The notes under the pieces: model-generated
The model's database searches: none
What the model saw: only the letters and a program-made list of their open reading frames with translations
What the model was told of the DNA's origin: nothing
Source of the DNA: Bacteroidetes bacterium UBA2475
GTDB taxonomy: Bacteria > Bacteroidota > Bacteroidia > B-17B0 > Aurantibacillaceae
DNA: 64,000 nt
NCBI GenBank assembly: GCA_002342065.1
Contig: DDPF01000010.1
Span: 327,507 to 391,506, forward strand
Direction of reading: 5' to 3'
Made by a program: the position numbers and the translations under genes
Shown here: one piece after another, positions 4,474 to 30,327 of the stretch
How positions within the stretch are numbered: the first letter of the stretch is position 1
How the letters are laid out: every line of letters starts with the position of its first letter

Positions 4474-5459
4474 TGGGTTGGTTGATTATTAGTTTGAGGT
4501 TCGGGTATAGTAATTTCTTCTTCACGCTTGGTTCCATTCACAAAATCGAAAGCATTTTGTAAAGTGAATTTATGTTCATCTTCTATTGGCGTTAATTTTG
4601 CAAATTTCACAAGGTCACTTAAGGTTAATGTTTGCTCTAATTTTTCTTTGCTCTGTTTATCTACAACTTGCGTCCTGAATGCTTTCATGATCTCATCCGT
4701 TGTACTTTCTAAAGCGTTTACATTAAAGCGTTCTTCGATATATAAACGAACCGCATCCGAAATAGATGAATAGTATTCTTTTACCTGCCCTTCTTTCCAG
4801 ACCTGTTCTTCTTTTATCTTTTCTAAGCTTGCAAGCGCAGTAATATGTGCCGGGATCTTCGGCTTCTCGGGTATAATAACAACCTGTTTGTTTCGTTTTG
4901 TAAAGTAAACCGTGAGAAGTATTATAGCCGTAATAAAAACAATTATTCCTATGCCCCAATAAATATAATCAAGGTACCATTTCCAGTTAAACTCTTCATT
5001 AAAAGGTGGCTTTATGTCTTTTGTTTTTGTAGCACTGGTATCTGTTGGGACTGTATGAACTTCTAGCAAAAGTGTTTCTGTAAAGAACGGTCGCGTAGTA
5101 TCATCATTTACAATAAATTTAAAACCCGGCACTGCAAAATAACCGCTGTCGTAAGCGCTTACTAAAATTTGTTGATGCTGCTGGTAAATGGTGGGATTAT
5201 TTTTATCAGGAATTGTAGTATCAATTGGAGTAATAGAAACAACTTCGACTTTGCCCGTAATGGTATCGCCAATAGAAGGCCATTGAATCTTAAGATCGCG
5301 CTGTGACGCATCGTAGTTTACATACAGATCTAACTTAACCTGCTCGCCGATCCTGATCTTAGAAGAATCTAAAACAGCACTTACCCTAATTTGTCCAAGA
5401 AAAATATTGGAACAAAAAATTAAGATCGCAACAAAAAGTATATGTTTGAGATTTTTCAA
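4470..5459 (-). CDS. Conserved bat-locus membrane protein (signal peptide, Ig-like region, one TM)
   Basis: Lies between DUF58 and batA; signal peptide, central TM, C-terminal 'LSDLVKFAK' motif typical of this gene position. Confidence 0.75.
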   Translation of the reverse strand: MKNLKHILFVAILIFCSNIFLGQIRVSAVLDSSKIRIGEQVKLDLYVNYDASQRDLKIQWPSIGDTITGKVEVVSITPIDTTIPDKNNPTIYQQHQQILVSAYDSGYFAVPGFKFIVNDDTTRPFFTETLLLEVHTVPTDTSATKTKDIKPPFNEEFNWKWYLDYIYWGIGIIVFITAIILLTVYFTKRNKQVVIIPEKPKIPAHITALASLEKIKEEQVWKEGQVKEYYSSISDAVRLYIEERFNVNALESTTDEIMKAFRTQVVDKQSKEKLEQTLTLSDLVKFAKLTPIEDEHKFTLQNAFDFVNGTKREEEITIPEPQTNNQPTQ

Positions 5460-19525: not shown

Positions 19526-20305
19526 ATGAGCAATTATCTTTCAATTCCGTTAATTTCCTGGGCAGTAGTCGCCGTTATCATGGTAATTATATGGTTCTGG
19601 GCCTTAAAGATCAAGAACAATGGCATTGTAGATATTTTTTGGGCATTTAACTTTACGGTTATTGCAGGTATTATCTGGTATTTAGCGGATGGCAATCCTG
19701 AAAGAAAGATTTTAGTTTGTGCACTGGCCGGTTTATGGAGTTTACGTTTAGGAATCTACTTATTGATCCGTGTTGGCGGCCATATAAAAGAAGAAGAAGG
19801 TCGCTACAAACAATTACGTTTAGAATGGAATGATGCAAAATTCTTTTTCTTCTTCCAGATGCAGGCTTTTTCAAATGTAATGTTAGCGCTTCCATTTTTT
19901 ATCATCGCTCTTAATCCAAATCCGGAAATATCCATCATCGAATACATTGGTGCGGGCTTATGGTTCTTATGCATTATTGGCGAAGGCATTTCTGACTGGC
20001 AACTACAATACTTTAAAAAACATAATACAGTAAAAGGAAAAGTTTGTGAGTTTGGTCTGTGGAATTATTCCCGTCACCCAAATTATTTTTTCCAATTTTC
20101 TTTATGGATCTCGGTTTTAATTTTTGCTTTACCTAGTCCTTACGGTTGGATCTCCGCGATCTGTCCTTTGTCCATCGGGTATTTATTATTTAAAGTAACA
20201 GGTATTCCAATGACGGAAGAACAGGCCGTTCGTAGCCGTGGCGAAGCATACAAAGAGTATCAACGCACAACAAGTGTTTTTGTACCCTGGTTTAAAAAGA
20301 AATAA
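19526..20305 (+). CDS. DUF1295 / steroid 5-alpha-reductase-like membrane protein
   Basis: 'VDIFW', 'WSLRLG', 'EEGRY', 'GLWNYSRHPNYF'. Confidence 0.88.
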   Translation: MSNYLSIPLISWAVVAVIMVIIWFWALKIKNNGIVDIFWAFNFTVIAGIIWYLADGNPERKILVCALAGLWSLRLGIYLLIRVGGHIKEEEGRYKQLRLEWNDAKFFFFFQMQAFSNVMLALPFFIIALNPNPEISIIEYIGAGLWFLCIIGEGISDWQLQYFKKHNTVKGKVCEFGLWNYSRHPNYFFQFSLWISVLIFALPSPYGWISAICPLSIGYLLFKVTGIPMTEEQAVRSRGEAYKEYQRTTSVFVPWFKKK

Positions 20306-20376
20306 GGAAAATGTAAAAGGAAAAATGGAAGATGTAATACTCTCCCTTTTCCATATTACCTTTTCCATTTTACATT
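20306..20376 (+). repeat. Inverted pair of degenerate heptamer tandem arms, no enclosed gene
   Basis: Left arm aaaatgt-aaaagga-aaaatgg-aagatgt; right arm ttttcca-tattacc-ttttcca-ttttaca. Confidence 0.75.
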
Positions 20377-20386
20377 AGTATAAATT

Positions 20387-21415
20387 ATGTTTTACAATAA
20401 ATTACTTGAAAAAGATAAACTTCCTGATTCTCTCATTCGCATTGGTATTCGCAAGTTATTAAAGCAGCGTTTACAAGATGAGAATAAAGGAAATACCGAA
20501 GCACAACAAGCACATTTAATGCAATTGATAGCTGAATTAAAAGCATCACCAATTGCAGTTAATACACAAGAAGCAAACGATCAACATTACGAAGTTCCAA
20601 CTCAATTCTATCAATACTGTTTAGGTAAACATTTAAAATACAGTAGCGGTTATTGGAAAGAAGGGGTTGCTGATATCGATACTTCCGAAAAAGACATGCT
20701 TGAACTAACCTGTCAACGGGCAGAATTAAAGGATGGGCAAGAGGTATTGGAATTAGGTTGCGGTTGGGGCTCTCTTTCATTATTTATGGCAGCTAAATTT
20801 CCTAAAAGTAATTTTACGGTTGTATCTAATTCCCGCACACAAAAAATTTATATCGACGATCAGGCAAAACAAAGAAACGTTAATAATTTAACTGTTATTA
20901 CTATAAACATTAACGATTTTGTTTTAGATAAAACCTTTGATCGTATTGTTTCGGTGGAGATGTTTGAGCACATGCGTAATTACCAAAAATTAATGCGTAA
21001 AGTAGCTACGCTTTTAAAACCCGAAGGAAAATTGTTCGTTCATATTTTTACACATAAAGAGTATGCGTATAAATTCGAAGTAAAAGATGAAAGCGATTGG
21101 ATGAGTAAATATTTTTTTACCGGCGGCATTATGCCAAGCGATGACCTTCTACTTTATTTTAACGAACATTTAAGTATCGAAAAGCACTGGCATGTGAGCG
21201 GTACTCATTATAGCAAGACATCTGAGGCCTGGCTTCAGAATATGGATAAACACAAAACAGAAATAATTCCTTTATTTGAGCAAACCTACGGCAAAGAAAA
21301 TGCGGTAAAATGGTGGGTATACTGGAGGATTTTTTATATGGCCTGCGCCGAATTATGGAACTTTAATAATGGCGAAGAATGGATAGTGAGTCACTATTTA
21401 TTTACCAAAAAATAA
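20387..21415 (+). CDS. Class I SAM-dependent methyltransferase, CMAS/cfa-related
   Basis: 'HYEVP', 'LKYSS', 'LELGCGWG', 'IVSVEMFEH', 'FFTGGIMPS'. Confidence 0.88.
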   Translation: MFYNKLLEKDKLPDSLIRIGIRKLLKQRLQDENKGNTEAQQAHLMQLIAELKASPIAVNTQEANDQHYEVPTQFYQYCLGKHLKYSSGYWKEGVADIDTSEKDMLELTCQRAELKDGQEVLELGCGWGSLSLFMAAKFPKSNFTVVSNSRTQKIYIDDQAKQRNVNNLTVITININDFVLDKTFDRIVSVEMFEHMRNYQKLMRKVATLLKPEGKLFVHIFTHKEYAYKFEVKDESDWMSKYFFTGGIMPSDDLLLYFNEHLSIEKHWHVSGTHYSKTSEAWLQNMDKHKTEIIPLFEQTYGKENAVKWWVYWRIFYMACAELWNFNNGEEWIVSHYLFTKK

Positions 21416-21419
21416 AACT

Positions 21420-22550
21420 ATGTGGCGTTTACTTGTTGCAGTTCTTCTTTTCCTTTTATCCTTAATGGTGTTCTTTAAGGCGCCAACTAATTTTTTATGG
21501 AGAGTATCAGTTGCAATTACAGAATTTCCGTACATCTTTATTCTTGCTTCGCTTTTATTTTTCTTTGTATGCTTAAAAGCCACTAAATACAAAACAGCAG
21601 TTGTAACTCTAAGTAGCATAACTACTTTAATATATATCCTTCCCATTATCCAGGTTTACATGCGTGGAAATAACTTAACTGAAGATCTCAAAAAAAAATT
21701 CCCCTTTAGAGAGAATGAACAACATCTACAACAGCCCTACTCCTTTTTAAAAATGTTTAGCAGTATTAAGGGTGAAGAGATTACACCACAAATTTTTGCA
21801 TACAAAAAATTACAAGAAAGGAACCTGAATATTGATCTTTACCCCTCACAATCAAACACTGTGTCTCCCTGTGTAATTGTTATCCACGGCGGTTCCTGGG
21901 CAGAAGGCGATAGCAAACAATTACCGGACCTGAACAGTTATTTAGCAAACAAAGGTTATCATGTGGTAGCTATCAATTACCGGTTAGCTCCAAAATATAA
22001 ATCACCTGCACCGGTTGAAGACCTTAGAGATGTAATAAACTACTTAACTGCTAATTCAGAAAAATTAAAGATCGATACATCCAACTTTGTTTTGCTTGGT
22101 CGTTCGGCGGGTGGACAAATTGCTTTATGTGCTGCTTATACTTATAACTTACCAAATATTAAAGGCGTAATTTCTTTTTATGCTCCGGCTGATATGGTTT
22201 GGGGCGCAAGAATAAAAAGTAATAAACTTGTTTTAAACACGGATAAGGTATTTACAGATTATTTAGGAGGACTAATAGATGAAGTCCCACAAAAATATCA
22301 AGAGGCAGGTGCAGTGGATCATGTAAACAAAAATTCACCTCCAACGTTAATTATTCATGGCGCACATGATGCCATGGTCGCATATGGACATAGTGAACGC
22401 CTGGATAAAAAATTAGAGGAGAATAATGTCCAACATTACTTCTTAAATTTACCCTGGGCCACACATGGCTGCGACTATAATATTAATGGGCCAAGTGGCC
22501 AAATAACAACTTTTACAATTGAACGTTTTTTAAACTCAGTAACAAATTAA
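21420..22550 (+). CDS. Membrane-anchored alpha/beta hydrolase (HSL-like esterase)
   Basis: N-terminal TM segments, 'HGGSW', nucleophile 'GRSAGG', 'HGAHD', 'HGCD'. Confidence 0.85.
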   Translation: MWRLLVAVLLFLLSLMVFFKAPTNFLWRVSVAITEFPYIFILASLLFFFVCLKATKYKTAVVTLSSITTLIYILPIIQVYMRGNNLTEDLKKKFPFRENEQHLQQPYSFLKMFSSIKGEEITPQIFAYKKLQERNLNIDLYPSQSNTVSPCVIVIHGGSWAEGDSKQLPDLNSYLANKGYHVVAINYRLAPKYKSPAPVEDLRDVINYLTANSEKLKIDTSNFVLLGRSAGGQIALCAAYTYNLPNIKGVISFYAPADMVWGARIKSNKLVLNTDKVFTDYLGGLIDEVPQKYQEAGAVDHVNKNSPPTLIIHGAHDAMVAYGHSERLDKKLEENNVQHYFLNLPWATHGCDYNINGPSGQITTFTIERFLNSVTN

Positions 22551-23797
22551 TGCAAACATTAGCTATCATAGGAACAGGAATTGCAGGCATGGGTTGCGGA
22601 CATTTGCTTCAAAAAAAATACAATATAACTTTGTTTGAACAGAACAATTATATTGGCGGACATACTAACACGTTTTCCACTGAAGAGGATGGCAATAAAG
22701 TTTTTATGGATACAGGTTTTATGGTCTTTAATTTTGAGACATATCCAAATCTTTGCAAATTATTTGATGAAATAAAAGCACCGATCAAAAAAACGGACAT
22801 GTCGTTTAGTGTGCAACACACTGCGAGCGGCCTTGAATACTGTGGTTCCGGACTGAATGGTTTATTTGCTCAACGTAAAAATATCTTTAGTATCGGTTAT
22901 ATTAAAATGCTAATAGAAATAACACGCTTTAATAAAATAAGTGTAGAAATTTTAGATGATCCGAAATATGAGAATCATTCTTTAGCACAATACATTAAAG
23001 AATTTAATTTTAGTGAAGAGATGCTTTGGAAATATTTAGTACCTATGAGCTCTGCAGTTTGGAGTACGCCAATGGATAAGATGTTAGATTTTCCAGCCGT
23101 TGCACTTATTCGATTTTTTAAGAACCATGGCTTTTTGGGATTGAATACGCAACACCAATGGTATACGTTAGAAAACGGGAGTCAATCTTATCGCGAGATC
23201 TTAATTAAGCCATTTAAAGACAAGATTCATATTAATAATGGTGCTGTAAAAGTTAGTCGTAATGCAAATGGAAAGGCCACTCTACATTTAAAAGATGGGA
23301 CTTCAAAAGAATTTGATAAAGTTATTTTTGCTTCGCACGCTGATGAAACTTTGAAAATATTAGACCAACCAACAGCAGAGGAAAAAAGATTATTGAGTCC
23401 ATTTAAATACCAAAAAAATATTGCCACGGTTCATACAGATGAATCAACTATGCCAAAAAACAAGAAAACATGGAGCAGTTGGAATTATAGGATAGAAGAA
23501 CGAAATGGAAAACAGGTTCCAACAACTATTTATTGGATGAACAGTTTACAAGGCGTTTCTAAAAAGAAAAATTATTTTGTTTCTATAAATGCCATTCCCG
23601 GAACTGTAGATAAGGCTAAGATATTAAAAGAAATAGATTACGAACACCCCTTATTTGATGTAGCGGCCATTAATGCGCAAAATGAATTACAAACATTAAA
23701 TGAAAGCGGACCTTTGTACTATTGCGGAAGTTACTTTAAATACGGCTTTCATGAAGATGCTTATGCCAGTGCGGTAGAACTGTGTAAACGAATGTAA
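22550..23797 (+). CDS. FAD-dependent oxidoreductase of the cfa/DUF1365 cluster (UfaD-like)
   Basis: 'IIGTGIAG', 'GGHTNT', 'DTGFMVFN..TYPN', 'YGFHEDA'. Confidence 0.88.
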   Translation: MQTLAIIGTGIAGMGCGHLLQKKYNITLFEQNNYIGGHTNTFSTEEDGNKVFMDTGFMVFNFETYPNLCKLFDEIKAPIKKTDMSFSVQHTASGLEYCGSGLNGLFAQRKNIFSIGYIKMLIEITRFNKISVEILDDPKYENHSLAQYIKEFNFSEEMLWKYLVPMSSAVWSTPMDKMLDFPAVALIRFFKNHGFLGLNTQHQWYTLENGSQSYREILIKPFKDKIHINNGAVKVSRNANGKATLHLKDGTSKEFDKVIFASHADETLKILDQPTAEEKRLLSPFKYQKNIATVHTDESTMPKNKKTWSSWNYRIEERNGKQVPTTIYWMNSLQGVSKKKNYFVSINAIPGTVDKAKILKEIDYEHPLFDVAAINAQNELQTLNESGPLYYCGSYFKYGFHEDAYASAVELCKRM

Positions 23798-23823
23798 AAT
23801 GTAAGATGGCAAAGGGAAAATGG
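23791..23823 (+). repeat. Left heptamer arm of the four-helix-bundle cassette
   Basis: aatgt-aaaatgt-aagatgg-caaaggg-aaaatgg, starting over the upstream gene's stop codon. Confidence 0.7.
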
Positions 23824-23844
23824 AGTGAATTAAAACAATAGAAA

Positions 23845-24207
23845 ATGAATGATAGAACTCAACAATTATTAGATAGAACATTTGATTTCGGAGTAAATAT
23901 TCTTAAATTTTTACGAAAGCTTCCAGATGATCATATTTATAGAATACCGAAAGTACAGGTTGGCAGGTCTTCCATTTCGATTGGTGCAAATTATGAAGAA
24001 GCTCAGGGTGCAGTATCAAAAAGAGATTTTTCTAATAAAATTGGCATTAGCTATAAAGAAGCCCGTGAAAGTCTTTATTGGTTAAGAGTTTTACAAAAAT
24101 TATATGAAGAAGAGAAATATCAAAAAGAGTTTGAAATATTTTTAAAAGAATCCCAAGAGCTAAAAAATATTTTTGCTGCTATTAAAAAATCGTCCAAAGA
24201 AAGCTAA
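23845..24207 (+). CDS. Four helix bundle protein (23S rRNA IVS-protein / TIGR02436-like family)
   Basis: 120 aa; 'QVGRSSISIGANYEEAQ', 'SKRDFSNKIGISYKEARESLYWL'. Confidence 0.9.
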   Translation: MNDRTQQLLDRTFDFGVNILKFLRKLPDDHIYRIPKVQVGRSSISIGANYEEAQGAVSKRDFSNKIGISYKEARESLYWLRVLQKLYEEEKYQKEFEIFLKESQELKNIFAAIKKSSKES

Positions 24208-24210
24208 TGA

Positions 24211-24247
24211 ACTTTACATTTTCCATATTACCTTTTACATTTTCCAT
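24211..24247 (+). repeat. Right heptamer arm of the four-helix-bundle cassette
   Basis: ctttaca-ttttcca-tattacc-ttttaca-ttttcca; inverse complement of the left-arm unit. Confidence 0.75.
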
Positions 24248-24250
24248 AAC

Positions 24251-25048
24251 ATGAACTCCTGTCTATATAAAGCCACAGTAATGCATAATCGCTTGAAACC
24301 TACTTCTCACCGGTTTCATTACAATGTGTTTATGTTTTATATTGACCTGGATGAAATAGCGCATTTAAAAAAGAAACTCCTCCTCTTCAGTCATAATAGA
24401 TTTAATTTTTTTAGTTTCAGAGATAATGAGCATTTGCAATTGCCAATTGAAAATCCTGATAAAAGCAAAACAACAAAACAGCATATCTTAGACTATCTTC
24501 AAAAAAATAACGTTACAACTGCTCCGGCAAAAATAATGTTGCTTACCAATTTAAATGTGCTTGGTTATAATTTTAATCCGGTTTCTTTTTATTATTGTTT
24601 TGACGAAAAAGATCAAGCCATTTGTTGCATTGCCGAAGTTGGAAATACTTTCAGGGAAATGAAACCCTTTCTTTTAACTAAAGAGAATTTAAGAGATAAT
24701 ACATTTCATTTAAATACCGCCAAGTACTTTTACGTGTCTCCTTTTATAGACCACGATGCTAATTTTGATTTTAACCTTGTAATTCCAACCGAAAAACTCA
24801 ATAATAAGATAGATACTTATAAAGATGGAGAGCGTATTTTTATAAGCACTTTAACCGGGGTTAAAAAACCAATAAATAACCGGAATTTATTTTGGTACAG
24901 CATCCGTTTTCCCTTTATTACCCTCAAAATTATTACTTTAATACACTGGAACGCCCTGAAACTCTGGCTAAAAAAGATACCATATCACAAAAAAGACGAA
25001 AACCCACATCTGCAAAAGGATGTTTTTCGTAAGTATAAAAACGATTAA
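24251..25048 (+). CDS. DUF1365 family protein (UfaO-like)
   Basis: 'HNRLKP..HRFHY', 'LGYNFNPVSFYYC', 'EVGNTF', 'KYFYVSPF', 'IHWNALKLWLK'. ATG at 24251; the track's longer start runs through the repeat arm. Confidence 0.88.
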   Translation: MNSCLYKATVMHNRLKPTSHRFHYNVFMFYIDLDEIAHLKKKLLLFSHNRFNFFSFRDNEHLQLPIENPDKSKTTKQHILDYLQKNNVTTAPAKIMLLTNLNVLGYNFNPVSFYYCFDEKDQAICCIAEVGNTFREMKPFLLTKENLRDNTFHLNTAKYFYVSPFIDHDANFDFNLVIPTEKLNNKIDTYKDGERIFISTLTGVKKPINNRNLFWYSIRFPFITLKIITLIHWNALKLWLKKIPYHKKDENPHLQKDVFRKYKND

Positions 25049-25117
25049 AAATGTAAGGATTAGACAAAAAATTCGTCTATTTTTAGGTTAATATTCTTAA
25101 ATTCGTGATTAAGATAA

Positions 25118-26356
25118 ATGTCAACAGTAACCACCATAGCAACAAAACAGGGCTTTTATGAGAAAGTGATCTTAGATCTGCTTTCTAAAATGCAATTGGG
25201 TACGCTTAACATAACCTTACCAAATGGCCAGTTAATTAAGATCGGTAATGGGGGAAGTAATATTGAAGCAAATATAGAAATCACTGATCCCAATTTTTTT
25301 AAGCGTTGTGTTTTATACGGTGATATTGGTTTTGGAGAATCGTACACTGACGGAGAATGGGATACTGATAATATTACCAATGTTATAAAATGGTTCCTGC
25401 TTAATGTAGATAACGCTCCTACCGCATCTGGAAGTACAACAAAAAGTCTTGCATTAAATCTTTTTAAAATAGCAAACAAGCTATCTCATTTAAAAAGAAG
25501 CAATAGTGTTAGTGGTTCAAGAAAAAATATATCAGCGCATTACGACCTCAACAACGAATTTTTTGCGCTTTTTTTAGATGAGACCATGACCTACTCTTCT
25601 GCCTATTTTAAAAAAGAAGGCATGACCTTAAAAGAAGCACAATTAGCAAAGTATGATCGTTTATGTAAGCAATTAAATTTAAAAGCAAGTGATCATGTGT
25701 TAGAAATTGGGAGCGGCTGGGGCGGCAATGCTATTTATATTGCCCAAAACTATAATTGCAAAGTTACAACCGTTACTATTTCTCAAGAGCAATACAAATT
25801 GGCAAAAGAGCGCGTTGAAAAAGAGAACTTAACAGATAAAATTACAGTAGTACTAAAAGATTACCGTTTATTGGAAGGTAAATTTGACAAGATAATTTCT
25901 ATTGAAATGCTGGAAGCGGTTGGTGCAGAATTTTACAATATTTATTTTAAAAAATGCAGTGATCTTTTAAAGAAAGATGGCATTTTTGCGATACAGGTTA
26001 TTACCTGTCCTGACTCTCGTTTTGAGAGCTTAAAAAATGGTGTTGACTGGATACAAAAACATATTTTCCCCGGCTCTTTATTGCCCTCGGTAGCTGCAAT
26101 AAACAAGTCTGTTAACGAATCCTGCGACCTTACTTTGGTAGACCTAAAAGATATTGGATTAGATTACGCACACACGTTAAAGATCTGGCACCAGGAATTC
26201 AATAAAAATATTGATAAAGTTAAAGCGTTAAATTTTGACGATTATTTTATCCGCAAATGGAATTATTATTTGTGTTACTGCGAAGCCGCTTTTGCCATGC
26301 GCAATATTAACGTAATGCAGTTGGTTTATACAAGACCGAATAATACAGGAAGATAA
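25118..26356 (+). CDS. cfa: Cyclopropane-fatty-acyl-phospholipid synthase family methyltransferase (UfaM-like)
   Basis: 'GFGESY', 'NISAHYDLNNEFF', 'MTYSSA', 'LEIGSGWG', 'SIEMLEAVG', 'KHIFPG'. Confidence 0.9.
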   Translation: MSTVTTIATKQGFYEKVILDLLSKMQLGTLNITLPNGQLIKIGNGGSNIEANIEITDPNFFKRCVLYGDIGFGESYTDGEWDTDNITNVIKWFLLNVDNAPTASGSTTKSLALNLFKIANKLSHLKRSNSVSGSRKNISAHYDLNNEFFALFLDETMTYSSAYFKKEGMTLKEAQLAKYDRLCKQLNLKASDHVLEIGSGWGGNAIYIAQNYNCKVTTVTISQEQYKLAKERVEKENLTDKITVVLKDYRLLEGKFDKIISIEMLEAVGAEFYNIYFKKCSDLLKKDGIFAIQVITCPDSRFESLKNGVDWIQKHIFPGSLLPSVAAINKSVNESCDLTLVDLKDIGLDYAHTLKIWHQEFNKNIDKVKALNFDDYFIRKWNYYLCYCEAAFAMRNINVMQLVYTRPNNTGR

Positions 26357-26377: not shown

Positions 26378-27721
26378 TTAACTATTTACTTTCTTCTCTT
26401 TAAATCTCATAAAAATAATTGCTGCTAAAAAGCAAAGCACAAAACCTAAAATTCCGTTCAGGCGAATACCAAAATCATTTCCTACATCTTTGCCATAAAT
26501 TAAGAACATAGCAAATAAAGCAATACCAAAGGTTTGGGCGATCTTTACAAAAAAGTAACGCACTGCAAAATAAATAGCTTCTTTATTCTCATTGGTCTCT
26601 TCTGTATCTTTTTCAATGATCTCGGCAAGAATAGCATTAGGCAATATATTTAACGACGCTAAAGGAATAGCCGCAAAAGCGATCAATGAATAGATCTGTA
26701 CTAAAGGATCAATTTCGGACTTCCCTAAAAAATAGATCCCTAAAAATATAGTAGATAATAGAGCCAAAGAAAAAACAACAATTATTTTCTTGCCAATTTT
26801 TTTTGCCAGGTAATTTATTACAGGGTAAAAGATAAACGACACCAGCACCATCATGATCATGAGTTTGTTACCAATGGTTTCGGGCAATTGTAATAAGACG
26901 GTTACAAAATACATTAAACCGGAAGTGATAATTGTAACCGCAATAAAATAAGAGAAATCGGCCACAATAAATAATTGAAAATTTTTGTTAGTTAGTGTTT
27001 GTCGTAATGCTTTTTTCATGGGCACTGCGCTTGGTTTGCTATCACAATATTTTCTTTCGTCGATAGCCAAAACTGTTACCAACATAAAAAGCGCAGCCAA
27101 CGCGGCCATTAAAACAATAGTTAATTGCAATGCGGAAATACGAGAAACAATACTTAAAGAATGTTGGAGAAGATCCGTTAAATTAAATGCGTTAGATGCT
27201 ATACCAATACCAAATACATAACCAACCGATTGCCAGGTGGCCAAGCGTACTTTATCTTCCGAGCCCGGTGCTAATTCCGGAAGCAACGCATTATAAGGAA
27301 TGATATATGTTGTAGACGAAACATAAAACCCGATCAACATAAAAACTAACCAAACAATATTTAACGTACTCTCTTCTTCACGCAATGGATAAAAAACAAG
27401 GCAACAAAAAATAAGCGAAGGAATAATTGCCAGCTTCATTATGGGAATTCTTCGTCCTTTAGGGTTTTTGCTTTGATCGCTGAACTGCGCGATGAATGGA
27501 TCGTAAACCGCATCTATCAATCTACCACTGGCAGTAACAATTGCAATAACATTAAAGATCCCAAAAATAGCAACCTGTGTTATTAAATTTGGAAGACCGC
27601 TGCTGGTTGGAGGAATGTATAGATATACAAGAATAACACTTATTAAATTGATCATAATGCTCCAACCCATCATACCAAAAGCATAAGCAATTTGTTTAAC
27701 GAGAGGAAGTTTTTGTGTCAA
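26378..27721 (-). CDS. MFS transporter, GPH / Na+-melibiose symporter-like
   Basis: About 12 TM segments; 'GRLIDAVYDP', 'GRRIP', 'PYNALLPEL'. Confidence 0.88.
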   Translation of the reverse strand: MTQKLPLVKQIAYAFGMMGWSIMINLISVILVYLYIPPTSSGLPNLITQVAIFGIFNVIAIVTASGRLIDAVYDPFIAQFSDQSKNPKGRRIPIMKLAIIPSLIFCCLVFYPLREEESTLNIVWLVFMLIGFYVSSTTYIIPYNALLPELAPGSEDKVRLATWQSVGYVFGIGIASNAFNLTDLLQHSLSIVSRISALQLTIVLMAALAALFMLVTVLAIDERKYCDSKPSAVPMKKALRQTLTNKNFQLFIVADFSYFIAVTIITSGLMYFVTVLLQLPETIGNKLMIMMVLVSFIFYPVINYLAKKIGKKIIVVFSLALLSTIFLGIYFLGKSEIDPLVQIYSLIAFAAIPLASLNILPNAILAEIIEKDTEETNENKEAIYFAVRYFFVKIAQTFGIALFAMFLIYGKDVGNDFGIRLNGILGFVLCFLAAIIFMRFKEKKVNS

Positions 27722-27726
27722 GAGAT

Positions 27727-30039
27727 CTAAATTTTAATACCAATTACAAGCACATCATCCACCTGCGCTACAGAACCACGCCATTTCTCAAACGTATTGT
27801 ACAAAGTAGCTTTTTGTTCTTCCATAGACTGATCTTGCATATTAATAAGCGTTTCTTTAAAACGTTTATATAAAAATTTCTTTTCTTTTTCGCCACCAAA
27901 CTGATCTGCATAACCGTCTGTGAAAAGGTATATACAATCGCCTTTTTGTAACGTAAACAACGTATTTGTAAACGGTTTCGATTCTGAATCCATTGCCGCG
28001 GTAATTGGTTGTTTATCGCCTTTAAATTCAAATAACTTTTTGTTACGAACAACATACAAAGGGTTATTAGCGCCTGCAAATTCTAAACGCATTCCCTGAA
28101 TATCAATGCAGCAAAAGGCTACATCCATCCCATCTCTTATGGGTGTTTCGTTACTATTTTGATTTAAACTTTTTTTAAGTTCGCTATTTAAGAAATCTAA
28201 AGCCACGGCTGCGGAATTTATTTCTGAATTATTGATTGTTTGATTTAATAAGGTATTTCCAATGATACTCATAAATGCACCAGGCACTCCATGTCCGGTA
28301 CAATCTACCGCAGCTATTACCAAAACATTGGTGCCGGCTTTGTATTCGTAACCTGTTTTTGAATATAAATCTTCTTTGATCTCATAATTTGTAAACCAAT
28401 AAAAATCGCCACTTACAATATCTCGAGGTTTAAAAAATATAAACGACTCAGGAGCATACTCTTTCAATTTTGCTTTTTCGATTAAGATGGATCGCTGAAT
28501 ACGTTTTGAATATTCAATACTATCAGAAATATCTTTATTCTTTTCATCGATCTCGTGACGCTGTTCGTTGATCTCTTTTTCTAAACGCATACGTTCTGTT
28601 ATATCACGTGCATAAATAACAATTGCCGGGCGGCCTGCGAAAGGCGCAACTTTGGCCGAACACTCAACAGGAATTAAATTTCCTGATTTTGTAATAAAAG
28701 GAACATCTTTATAAATCAAACCTCCCTTTTCCCAAACGTCTGCAACAATACTTGAACTTTTTTCAAGATATTCTTTTGGATGAAGATCAAACAAAGAAAG
28801 TTTTTCTAATTCTTCTTCCGAATATTCTAACAATTTAGTAGCACTTGGGTTTGTTTGGTGAATTTTACCATCCACAATATCAATGACGAGCATAGCATCG
28901 TTGGCTTGATCGATAATGCTTTCATAATTACTTAGTTGTTTTTTTAATGAAGCAATTGTTTCTTCGTAATTCTTTACTTCTTCACTCGTGGATGCTTTTT
29001 TAGAAGATGTTTCTTTAAGCTGTATTTCCTCTTCTGAAGGATCTTTAGAAGTTTTATATTTTCCATCCAACTCCTCTATAATTGGAAAAATTAACGAAGG
29101 ATTTAAAAACTCCCCTACTTTATCGGGACGCGAAACATAACGCACCACTCCTGTTTTATCAATTAAAAAAGAAGCGGGTAATGGAATACCTTCTTCATAC
29201 TTCTCAGCAAAATCGTTATCATATTCTTTTAGCTGGACACCATATATCATAGCCGTTTTTTGTCCCTCATCGGCCAACACTTTAAAATCCAAGCCTAACT
29301 TTTCTACCATCCCTTTGTTAACACCAACAGGATCGGGACCAATAGCCATTACTAAAATATTTTTGGACTGGAATTTATCATTATTTTTTTCGTAAGTACG
29401 TAGCATCATGTGGCAACCCGGACACCAATCGCCACGCACAAATATTAAAAGTAAATGACGTTTATCTTTAAAATCAGAGAGCTTAACGATCTCTCCATTT
29501 TGATCGGGCAATGCAAATTCGTTAGCAGGTTTACCAATTTGCACGCGGTAACCACCCGAGTGAATCTTTAATTGTTTTTTATCTTTTAAAATGCCCCAAC
29601 CTAAAACAGCGGCAAATAAAATTATTAAAGAAGGAAATGCCCAACCCTGCCAACCATAAGGAAAAATTATATTACCGGCTAAATAACAAACGAAGGCCAA
29701 ACCAAACATTAAAGGTTCGAACCATGAATAACCCGTATATGAAAAAGTGGTAAAAAATACGATCCGCAAAATAGATCCAAAACCAGCTATTAATAAAGCA
29801 ATAGTTAAAAGAGGAAAATGTTCAAAAGGAAGATCTAACGAAGCGCCAATTAAAAATGCAGAAACAAAAACAGTAATAAATTGGTACCAACTGGTATATT
29901 TTGAAACTTCTTTAACGGAAGCAAAATAGGCTACCAATGATAATATAGATGCCGGCAAAGTATAGCCTAAAAAAAGGCAAACAATGGAACCAATATTGAG
30001 GACAACTGCAAGTGTGGTACCTGGGTGGATCTTTTTCAT
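27727..30039 (-). CDS. Membrane / AhpC-TSA redoxin / PAS / SpoIIE (PP2C-type) phosphatase fusion
   Basis: aa 1-150 hydrophobic; 'FALPDQNG...FVRGDWCPGC...PASFLIDKTGVVRY'; PAS ending 'YARDITER'; SpoIIE motifs 'PRDIVSGDFYW', 'DCTGHGVPGAFMS', 'DGMD', 'TDGYADQFGG', 'DDVLVIG'. Confidence 0.85.
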   Translation of the reverse strand: MKKIHPGTTLAVVLNIGSIVCLFLGYTLPASILSLVAYFASVKEVSKYTSWYQFITVFVSAFLIGASLDLPFEHFPLLTIALLIAGFGSILRIVFFTTFSYTGYSWFEPLMFGLAFVCYLAGNIIFPYGWQGWAFPSLIILFAAVLGWGILKDKKQLKIHSGGYRVQIGKPANEFALPDQNGEIVKLSDFKDKRHLLLIFVRGDWCPGCHMMLRTYEKNNDKFQSKNILVMAIGPDPVGVNKGMVEKLGLDFKVLADEGQKTAMIYGVQLKEYDNDFAEKYEEGIPLPASFLIDKTGVVRYVSRPDKVGEFLNPSLIFPIIEELDGKYKTSKDPSEEEIQLKETSSKKASTSEEVKNYEETIASLKKQLSNYESIIDQANDAMLVIDIVDGKIHQTNPSATKLLEYSEEELEKLSLFDLHPKEYLEKSSSIVADVWEKGGLIYKDVPFITKSGNLIPVECSAKVAPFAGRPAIVIYARDITERMRLEKEINEQRHEIDEKNKDISDSIEYSKRIQRSILIEKAKLKEYAPESFIFFKPRDIVSGDFYWFTNYEIKEDLYSKTGYEYKAGTNVLVIAAVDCTGHGVPGAFMSIIGNTLLNQTINNSEINSAAVALDFLNSELKKSLNQNSNETPIRDGMDVAFCCIDIQGMRLEFAGANNPLYVVRNKKLFEFKGDKQPITAAMDSESKPFTNTLFTLQKGDCIYLFTDGYADQFGGEKEKKFLYKRFKETLINMQDQSMEEQKATLYNTFEKWRGSVAQVDDVLVIGIKI

Positions 30040-30076: not shown

Positions 30077-30108
30077 AAAAAAATCCCTTTAGCTTTCACT
30101 AAAGGGAT
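30077..30108 (-). terminator. Intrinsic terminator after dnaK-secG-like
   Basis: 10-bp stem ATCCCTTTAG/CTAAAGGGAT followed by a T run on the minus strand. Confidence 0.8.
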
Positions 30109-30132
30109 CCTTCATTTAAACTTTAAAGTCTA

Positions 30133-30327
30133 TTATTTAATTAAGATCGCAAACACCATCACTAATAACGCTAATGACCATGTTGTTTTTTCTATAAAGC
30201 TATTTGCTTTATTTATACTTACAACTTGCCTTGCTACTTTACTTTGAAATTCACCTTTTGAGTTTTGCATCAAAACAGCAATAATAAGTAAAGAACAGAG
30301 CGATAATAGTGCGATTGATAAGATCAT
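30133..30327 (-). CDS. secG: Short SecG-like membrane protein
   Basis: Two TM segments, 'LLIIAVLMQNSKG' and 'FIEKTTW' match SecG, but the Gly-rich loop is missing and it is only 64 aa. Confidence 0.6.
   Translation of the reverse strand: MILSIALLSLCSLLIIAVLMQNSKGEFQSKVARQVVSINKANSFIEKTTWSLALLVMVFAILIK

Follow-up and report, generated by a model that had tools for sequence, protein, structure and literature searches.

What does a bacterium sense when a thioredoxin-fold domain, tethered to the membrane, is joined in one polypeptide to a PAS domain and a protein phosphatase? The question is raised by an open reading frame (ORF) in a 64,000-nucleotide stretch of the Bacteroidetes bacterium UBA2475 genome (contig DDPF01000010.1, positions 327,507 to 391,506), hereafter the window. 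The answer that we favour, with moderate confidence, is that this ORF encodes a fused, two-part, membrane-anchored thiol-redox sensor module that controls a PP2C Ser/Thr phosphatase. The module probably reports oxidative trouble at the membrane; we infer its function, signal and substrate from sequence comparison and structure prediction. The ORF begins with an ATG, runs from 30039 to 27727 on the minus strand without an internal stop and encodes 770 amino acids (aa). An earlier sequence-only reading of the window had described a single uninterrupted 770-aa ORF at 27727-30039, and these coordinates are exact. The whole ORF and its parts are listed below, with the evidence for each; pLDDT is the predicted local distance difference test score of the AlphaFold (AF2) models.

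27727 to 30039, minus strand: whole ORF, 770 aa plus stop, with six transmembrane helices, CxxC redoxin, linker, PAS, helix and PP2C (SpoIIE) domain (ORF reading and Pfam).
29551 to 30039, minus strand: N-terminal six-helix membrane domain, aa 1-163 (hydropathy; AF2 helices with pLDDT of about 90-98).
29065 to 29547, minus strand: thioredoxin-fold redoxin, aa 165-325, AhpC/TSA by profile, with a ResA/TlpA-like active site and predicted to be cytoplasmic (Pfam, PDB sequence matches, Foldseek).
29413 to 29424, minus strand: C206-P-G-C209 redox motif, codons TGT CCG GGT TGC (sequence).
28945 to 29064, minus strand: variable linker rich in Lys, Glu and Ser, aa 326-365 (conservation 0.31; pLDDT below 50 for residues 333-352).
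28585 to 28944, minus strand: PAS domain, aa 366-485, with C460 encoded by TGT at 28660-28662 (Pfam, TIGR00229).
28450 to 28584, minus strand: long helix connecting the PAS domain to the phosphatase, aa 486-530 (AF2 helix 481-518, pLDDT of about 80-90).
27730 to 28449, minus strand: PP2C/SpoIIE phosphatase, aa 531-770, SiaA-like, with the catalytic Asp residues intact (Pfam SpoIIE, partial NF038263 match, PDB 6k4e, Foldseek).

The domain assignments of the sequence-only reading largely hold. Its AhpC/TSA-type domain is matched by Pfam AhpC-TSA (PF00578) at aa 168-302 (E-value 4e-27, 95 bits versus a cut-off of 26) and by Redoxin at aa 168-307, above the gathering score, and both C206 and C209 are read directly in FVRGDWCPGC. 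The PAS region is matched at aa 371-483, including PAS_9 at aa 381-482 (E-value 3e-9), above the gathering scores, and the PAS, PAS_4 and TIGR00229 profiles match it as well. Pfam SpoIIE (PF07228) matches aa 573-769 (E-value 3e-18, 67 bits versus a cut-off of 25). The metal-binding motifs had been described as intact, and the corresponding residues D545, D579, D636, D639, D708, D761 and D762 are invariant in an alignment of 73 species, to which all statements on conservation below refer. Mean column conservation in this alignment is 0.84 for the redoxin, 0.84 for the PAS, 0.68 for the PP2C domain, 0.58 for the membrane domain and 0.31 for the linker. Redoxin and PAS are thus the best-conserved parts of the protein, and the charged linker is real and is its least conserved segment. 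Two claims needed adjustment: the 5-6 predicted transmembrane segments are exactly six, and the element described as a coiled coil is indeed helical but is a single long helix at 481-518.

We performed a sequence search over 5.8 billion proteins, with clustering at 90% identity. It returned about 97 clusters with the identical full-length architecture and 59-90% identity, drawn from NCBI, JGI, ENA and Logan; P0295 and P0298 represent more divergent fused forms. The databases name these proteins only as 'redoxin domain-containing protein' or 'PAS domain S-box protein', and our literature searches for the architecture found nothing relevant. The architecture had been flagged as non-standard, and it is genuine and conserved. 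One carrier, Aurantibacillus circumpalustris (WP_317900146.1), is in culture. The named sources are all Bacteroidota and nearly all uncultured. The module is an accessory trait: 46 of the order's 185 genomes have it, as do 22 of the 199 genera sampled in the class. Within the genome studied here, no second copy of the membrane domain and no other redoxin-SpoIIE protein was found.

Scanning one genome per species revealed relatives in 152 species, of which 80 loci were kept. The gene is fused in about 30 of these species-level genomes (61-95% identity). In about 45 others it is split into a pair, in which a ~326-aa protein with the six transmembrane helices and the redoxin (6TM-redoxin) is followed by a ~440-aa PAS-SpoIIE protein, mostly across an intergenic gap of -20 to +30 nucleotides (nt). 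The two halves are adjacent or fused, in the same order, in all loci long enough to show both. The split redoxin protein terminates directly after the redoxin domain, and the stop codon, the start codon and a single transmembrane anchor occupy the place of the fused linker. Each of the 46 split PAS-SpoIIE proteins has this anchor at its N-terminus, with a basic segment after it, and both split partners would therefore sit at the membrane. In the fused forms, a disordered linker of ~40 residues rich in Lys, Glu and Ser substitutes for the anchor.

A tree was built from 73 concatenated sequences of the loci that were complete enough. Both of its deep clades are entirely split (34 of 34), one derived clade contains 30 fused and 8 split forms, and the 12 nearest relatives of the window gene are all fused. 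The tree shows at least 3-4 transitions between the fused and the split state. Since the split state fills the deep clades and the fused state is nested within one clade, the two-gene pair is the ancestral state on this tree and the fusion in the window is derived. Such persistent adjacency or fusion is classic evidence, at the level of gene order, that two halves function together. The sequence-only reading had named two-gene relatives, together with reads showing a stop or misassembly in the linker, as grounds against the single ORF. Many relatives do carry adjacent separate genes, including a split locus whose downstream genes match those of the window (L003), but the split form is a natural ancestral state and does not point to misassembly here.

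Some loci depart from the simple pair. Two or three tandem 6TM-redoxin genes, about 40-45% identical to each other, precede a single PAS-SpoIIE gene in L043, L060, L065 and L071 (and in G201, G374, G430 and G458), and several of these tandem loci carry arrays of extra PAS-SpoIIE genes directly downstream. In one subclade (L001, L015, L025, L044 and L046), a soluble 386-aa PAS-SpoIIE paralogue, with 33-39% identity, lies directly upstream of the redoxin gene.

What kind of chemistry the redoxin can perform is indicated by its active site. The stretch R202-G-D-W-C206-P-G-C209-H-M-M-L-R214 is invariant in 73 of 73 species, as is the cis-Pro loop I285-P-L-P288-A-S-F-L-I-D. By profile and by its thioredoxin-like fold, the domain has the features of a peroxiredoxin (Prx) of the AhpC/TSA, BCP/PrxQ kind. 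The closest Foldseek match is Bcp1 (3drn, TM-score 0.81), with Bcp1, AhpE and PrxQ structures at 0.75-0.81 and ResA at 0.67-0.75. By sequence, the best PDB match is ResA (4nmu, E-value 1.6e-12), followed by PrxQ (2ywn, 3e-10), and a match to NCBIfam NF040769 is weak (2.8e-7, below the cut-off). The PxxxT/SxxC motif of peroxiredoxins is absent: in alignments to 2ywn and 3drn its Pro falls on R202 and its Thr on C206. The catalytic Arg (R-x-x-F-x-I-D) is absent as well, being aligned with P288 of IPLPASFLID, and C209, at the position of the peroxidatic Cys, is the sole catalytic residue retained. The substitutions at these motif positions are themselves invariant. We thus rejected the peroxiredoxin reading, since R202, C206 and P288 stand where the catalytic Pro, Thr and Arg would be; a fast reaction with peroxide is not expected for the same reason.

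The domain has instead the W-C-x-x-C motif and cis-Pro loop on a thioredoxin fold that characterize ResA and TlpA. Its WCPGC aligns with WCKPC or WCPHC of ResA, and PLPA of the cis-Pro loop aligns with PLPT; a 16-residue insert precedes this loop when compared to ResA. With the Prx Thr and Arg missing and the WCxxC and cis-Pro as in ResA/TlpA, classical peroxidase chemistry is unlikely, and the alignments point to a site of the CxxC thiol:disulfide oxidoreductase type on a Prx-like scaffold. The earlier proposal of thiol-redox or peroxide sensing is therefore retained in its first part, as the invariant CxxC makes a thiol-redox input plausible, but peroxiredoxin-type peroxide sensing is unlikely from the active-site alignments.

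A search with the redoxin domain alone against 1.8 billion representatives revealed that six transmembrane helices followed by a redoxin form a sizeable family, with 67 representatives at E-values below 1e-30, almost all of about 325 aa and some from outside Bacteroidota. Near one divergent 6TM-redoxin paralogue (L084, G125:C21), a downstream 210-aa ORF at 4647-5279 on the minus strand contains the PAS of the family and only the beginning of the PP2C domain, and may be a truncated or decaying phosphatase partner. Redoxins are also found fused to histidine kinases, in P0382 (586 aa, redoxin-PAS-HisKA-HATPase) and P0389 (469 aa, redoxin-HisKA-HATPase). The redoxin is soluble in these proteins and has the same YRGxWCPxC-type motif; a search seeded with P0382 gave two proteins only, so that such fusions are rare. 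A likeness to the RGxWCPxC motif of Prx-like2/SelL proteins has its one support in the weak NF040769 match; the literature search gave no confirmation.

Hydropathy peaks and two AlphaFold models agree on transmembrane helices at 6-23, 27-48, 51-69, 77-94, 107-125 and 130-163. No Pfam family matches this domain (aa 1-163). In a Foldseek search with the AlphaFold model of aa 1-330, no PDB fold match to the six helices was among the top 50, which were all taken by the redoxin domain. R92 and E108 are invariant, and the membrane domain contains no conserved Cys and no known cofactor motif in the alignment. The mean number of Lys plus Arg per loop, from the N-terminus to the segment after the sixth helix, is 1.7, 0.1, 1.8, 0.1, 1.1, 0.6 and 5.2, which places both termini of the domain inside. 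Given this alternation of positive charge and the absence of transmembrane segments beyond residue 170 in the hydropathy profile, the redoxin, PAS and PP2C domains are all predicted to be cytoplasmic, with the redoxin kept beside the membrane. The ResA/TlpA arrangement, extracytoplasmic behind a single anchor or lipoprotein signal, is thus not what is predicted here; the redoxin follows six transmembrane helices.

The PAS assignment by profile is matched by its fold, which resembles FixL and LOV PAS domains in Foldseek. C460 is invariant in 73 of 73 species, and a Cys occupies this position in 80 of 80 PAS domains of the family. It is a Leu or Ile in five other alignable PAS domains, a thin baseline as the family hidden Markov model recovered just these five. 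From this substitution by Leu or Ile, C460 is probably buried, and apparently faces the pocket.

The phosphatase belongs to the PP2C/SpoIIE (PPM) family by both its profile and its metal-binding Asp residues, and its fold matches SpoIIE, RssB and RsbX in Foldseek. Its best PDB match (aa 488-768) is SiaA (6k4e, E-value 6e-30; TM-score 0.86), the PP2C phosphatase of the Pseudomonas aeruginosa SiaABCD system, which acts on the phosphoprotein SiaC. The SiaA equivalog profile NF038263 matches aa 488-769 on model positions 395-656 (E-value 6e-52), at 177 bits versus a cut-off of 700; neither a full-length match above the cut-off nor a siaABCD context is found, the neighbours being secG/dnaK and MFS_2. 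In this 4.15-Mb genome we counted 58 SpoIIE/PP2C-domain ORFs, many of which measure 650-1100 aa while two reach 1753 and 2596 aa, together with 11 genes of the SiaC family (DUF1987), 7 of which have a SpoIIE gene within 6 kb. These numbers suggest that phosphatase signalling of the SiaA/SiaC type forms a large network in the clade.

One STAS gene and one clear RsbW-like kinase gene are also present, distant from the ORF. No linkage to a STAS antagonist or anti-sigma kinase was found in the window neighbourhood or in the 80 related loci, and no SiaC, STAS or RsbW gene lies near the gene or is conserved beside the pair in relatives. The commonest flanking genes in 83 loci encode a metallophosphoesterase, a HAD hydrolase, MFS_2, SBP and glyoxalase, and all are lineage-specific. 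Our best guess for the substrate is a SiaC-type phosphoprotein, ahead of the single STAS protein. The sequence-only reading had linked the phosphatase to sigma-factor switching of the SpoIIE/RsbU type. This link is weakened: the nearest relative is SiaA, not RsbU or SpoIIE, with 11 SiaC genes against one STAS gene, and a sigma-factor partner switch is therefore neither the sole nor the likeliest output.

Taken as a whole, the transmembrane-redoxin-phosphatase architecture is plausibly best read as a membrane-tied thiol-redox input, which might work as follows. The six-helix domain would keep the thioredoxin-fold domain in the cytoplasm, close against the inner surface of the membrane. The W-C206-P-G-C209 pair would act as a dithiol/disulfide switch that responds to an oxidant near the membrane or to another thiol-reactive signal, for which lipid-derived oxidants, the quinone pool and singlet-oxygen damage are candidates. 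The redoxin would act on the adjoining PAS domain, as RsbQ does on the PAS of RsbP in Bacillus, and the PAS would relay the change through helix 481-518 to the PP2C domain. This would be the linker-helix route of PPM phosphatases, which are controlled through a helical linker between sensor and phosphatase dimers (PMC12143880). The output would be an altered dephosphorylation of a small phosphoprotein, most likely of the SiaC family and less likely the single STAS protein. The computations themselves show the domain layout with its six helices, the predicted cytoplasmic placement, an active site of oxidoreductase and not peroxidase type, an intact phosphatase centre, the conserved pair in both its forms and the co-occurrence with UfaO-type lipid genes described below. 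In this scheme we infer the CxxC redox state as the signal, the contact between redoxin and PAS, the identity of the oxidant, the substrate and the output.

The closest known logic, as we propose from the analogy, is that of the RsbQ-RsbP pair, with the redoxin and the PAS forming a bipartite sensor. In the energy-stress pathway of B. subtilis, an alpha/beta hydrolase, RsbQ, is paired with RsbP, a PAS-coiled coil-PPM phosphatase (Nadezhdin, Brody and Price 2011, PMC3183031). RsbQ contacts the PAS of RsbP; the two genes are neighbours, and the bipartite sensor that they specify occurs with further outputs as well (PMC3183031). Here too an accessory gene with an enzyme fold adjoins a PAS-helix-PP2C gene in a conserved pair, a likeness of logic and not of homology, and the rare redoxin-histidine kinase fusions P0382 and P0389 parallel the other outputs. 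The accessory protein differs, being a CxxC redoxin on a six-helix membrane domain and not a soluble alpha/beta hydrolase. In addition, both partners are tied to the membrane, a single clade switches between fused and split forms, the phosphatase resembles SiaA, and RsbV or RsbW genes are not found next to the pair.

Other likenesses concern single parts. The helix-PP2C part has its best sequence and structure match in SiaA, and SiaC genes of this genome often lie beside SpoIIE genes; the N-terminal input is entirely different from that of SiaA, and there is no adjacent siaB, siaC or siaD. ResA, TlpA and CcmG are extracytoplasmic reductants for cytochrome maturation, held by a single anchor. 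The redoxin shares with them a thioredoxin fold within the AhpC/TSA profile, W-C-x-x-C and a cis-Pro loop of the form PLP(A/T)(S/T)FLI, but it is predicted to be cytoplasmic, follows six transmembrane helices, carries the 16-residue insert and is wired to a signalling protein. BCP/PrxQ proteins provide the nearest overall fold, with C209 at the position of their peroxidatic Cys. In peroxiredoxin redox relays, such as Orp1-Yap1 of yeast, a thiol enzyme passes its oxidation state to a regulator. The module shares this concept; unlike in such relays, the Prx Pro, Thr and Arg are replaced, and no relay Cys was identified on an exposed surface of the partner. Finally, in ArcB and in RegB/PrrB with PrrC/SenC, a membrane-proximal Cys or a Sco-like thioredoxin fold reports the redox state of the quinones or the respiratory chain. 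These systems drive histidine kinases, and their Cys residues belong to the kinase itself or to a copper protein of the Sco type, so that the resemblance to the module is one of logic only.

The surroundings of the gene bring in a second line of observations. The flanking features are listed below.

30133 to 30327, minus strand: secG, 64 aa, between dnaK and the ORF (identity confirmed).
30078 to 30113, minus strand: strong terminator-like hairpin that follows secG and lies immediately upstream of the ORF (sequence).
26378 to 27721, minus strand: MFS_2 transporter gene, whose start follows the stop of the ORF by 5 nt (Pfam).
19526 to 26356, plus strand: lipid cluster with DUF1295, CMAS-like, BD-FAE esterase, FAD amine-oxidase-like (UfaD-like), DUF1365 (UfaO-like) and CMAS genes (Pfam).

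Since a terminator-like hairpin separates secG from the ORF, the latter probably has its own promoter. No terminator-like site was found between the ORF and MFS_2, and these two genes are probably co-transcribed; their adjacency is retained in 16 related loci. The lipid cluster, in which the CMAS-like protein has 342 aa and CMAS 412 aa, is convergent to the ORF. It is a possible functional associate of the gene and not part of it, and its adjacency to the ORF is confined to part of the derived clade. A gene for a four-helix bundle of the 23S-rRNA-IVP type lies at 23845-24207 on the plus strand, between the amine-oxidase-like and DUF1365 genes. BLAST matches it at the same place in L006, L014 and L058 and not, for example, in L004, L005, L007 or L011, and it looks like a variable insert.

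The genes of the cluster correspond to the furan-fatty-acid genes UfaM, UfaD and UfaO of Rhodobacter. The latter are part of the singlet-oxygen regulon and serve, through their products, in membrane protection (Lemke et al. 2020, PMC7380195); where UfaO obtains its reducing equivalents is described there as unknown. The literature searched held no description of how furan fatty acid synthesis is regulated outside alpha-proteobacteria. Among the 185 genomes of the order, DUF1365 is present in 39 of 42 with an orthologue of the module and in 17 of 143 without (odds ratio 96, Fisher p 5e-23). The corresponding figures in 401 genomes of the class, from about 11 families, are 26 of 30 versus 24 of 371 (odds ratio 94, p 5e-23). 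The co-occurring genes lie mostly at unlinked sites, and DUF1365 itself has a patchy distribution: the order has it in 56 of 185 genomes, the class in 50 of 401. Catalase, used as a control in the 185 genomes of the order, gave 19 of 42 versus 19 of 143 (odds ratio 5.4, p 4e-5). We treat the link between the module and UfaO as a tentative physiological lead suggested by gene content rather than as a result.

A more specific form of the thiol-redox scheme would build on this lead. In Rhodobacter, sensing of lipid oxidation and singlet oxygen is the job of sigmaE-ChrR. The module might be a thiol-based, phosphatase-driven counterpart of that pathway, a sensor of membrane lipid oxidation or singlet oxygen that controls, or is tuned by, a furan-fatty-acid-type protection of Bacteroidia. 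In this case the six-helix domain, not described before, would face lipid or quinone and keep the redoxin at the bilayer. We hold this narrower version to be doubtful.

Several observations weigh against a thiol-redox sensor of oxidative trouble at the membrane. The full-length AlphaFold model has pLDDT values of only 30-60 in the redoxin and a predicted TM-score (pTM) of 0.44; a second model, of aa 1-330 and with a more diverse alignment, is of good quality. The topology assignment rests on prediction, and the cytoplasmic location so predicted for the redoxin is unusual, whereas ResA/TlpA domains are usually extracytoplasmic. Some divergent 6TM-redoxin paralogues are solitary, without a phosphatase, and the redoxin module can therefore have a job of its own. 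The probable burial of C460 disfavours a simple disulfide relay to the PAS and makes a ligand or cofactor possible. Clustering of the flanks of the 83 loci found no conserved gene for a partner-switch substrate beside the pair. As for the lipid genes, the co-occurrence tests ignore phylogeny, and the catalase control reveals a real background association.

Some of these points feed the alternative that survives best, in which the PAS reads something other than the thiol state of the CxxC. The tethered redoxin would be catalytically active and reduce a substrate that comes from the membrane (such as a lipid hydroperoxide or endoperoxide, a furan fatty acid in oxidised form, or a quinone), or would supply reductant to UfaO-type chemistry, and the PAS would sense its product, its substrate or its turnover. 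Such a role would accord with the BCP/PrxQ peroxiredoxins as nearest fold, with the large 6TM-redoxin family that exists on its own, partly as solitary paralogues, and with a C460 that apparently faces the pocket. It would also accord with the strong co-occurrence with UfaO/DUF1365 and with the reductant that Lemke et al. (PMC7380195) leave unnamed for UfaO, and the RsbQ model likewise holds that activity is needed for the PAS (PMC3183031). Yet the catalytic Thr and Arg of a peroxidase are absent, the membrane domain has neither a conserved Cys nor a known cofactor motif, and the ligand cannot be named. The proposal moreover overlaps with the thiol-redox reading and differs from it only in what the PAS reads. 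We consider it unlikely.

Alternatively, the PAS could respond to something unrelated (energy, oxygen or a metabolite, for instance), and the 6TM-redoxin would carry no information; it would merely localise the phosphatase, or keep C460, C580 and the Mn site reduced. Indeed, many PAS-PP2C proteins with other inputs or no extra ones occur in the same genomes, the one studied here having 58 SpoIIE genes, PAS-SpoIIE paralogues neighbour the pair in related loci, and the self-anchored split PAS-SpoIIE could act at the membrane alone. But a mere anchor needs no 13-residue motif and cis-Pro loop that are invariant across about 75 species, and would not rank as the best-conserved part of the protein. 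In addition, the fused form loses the separate anchor, and the split form keeps the redoxin gene next door although the anchor function is redundant there. We judge this possibility quite improbable.

That an assembly or sequencing error removed the stop and the start between two genes, or that the ORF is a decaying pseudogene, might be suggested by the close two-gene relatives and by the flanking genes shared with L003, but is extremely improbable, as about 30 independent assemblies at species level and about 97 protein clusters share the fused ORF, its 12 nearest relatives in the tree are without exception fused, an error of one base at a split locus would not convert a transmembrane anchor into a 40-residue soluble linker, and the catalytic residues are all intact.

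To our knowledge, sensor PP2C phosphatases are a major and poorly understood signalling class, for almost none of which the input signal is known. The thiol-redox sensor module proposed here offers such a phosphatase an input whose chemistry can be guessed, namely two invariant Cys residues in a thioredoxin fold at the membrane, and its natural fused and split forms suit interaction and reconstitution work. The strong co-occurrence with a UfaO-type gene offers a tangible lead to the physiology. For PPM phosphatases, PAS, GAF, REC and HAMP domains are recognised as sensory inputs (PMC12143880). If the proposal is true, a thioredoxin-fold domain would join them, and the 'enzyme plus PAS' principle of RsbQ-RsbP would extend to a second enzyme fold.

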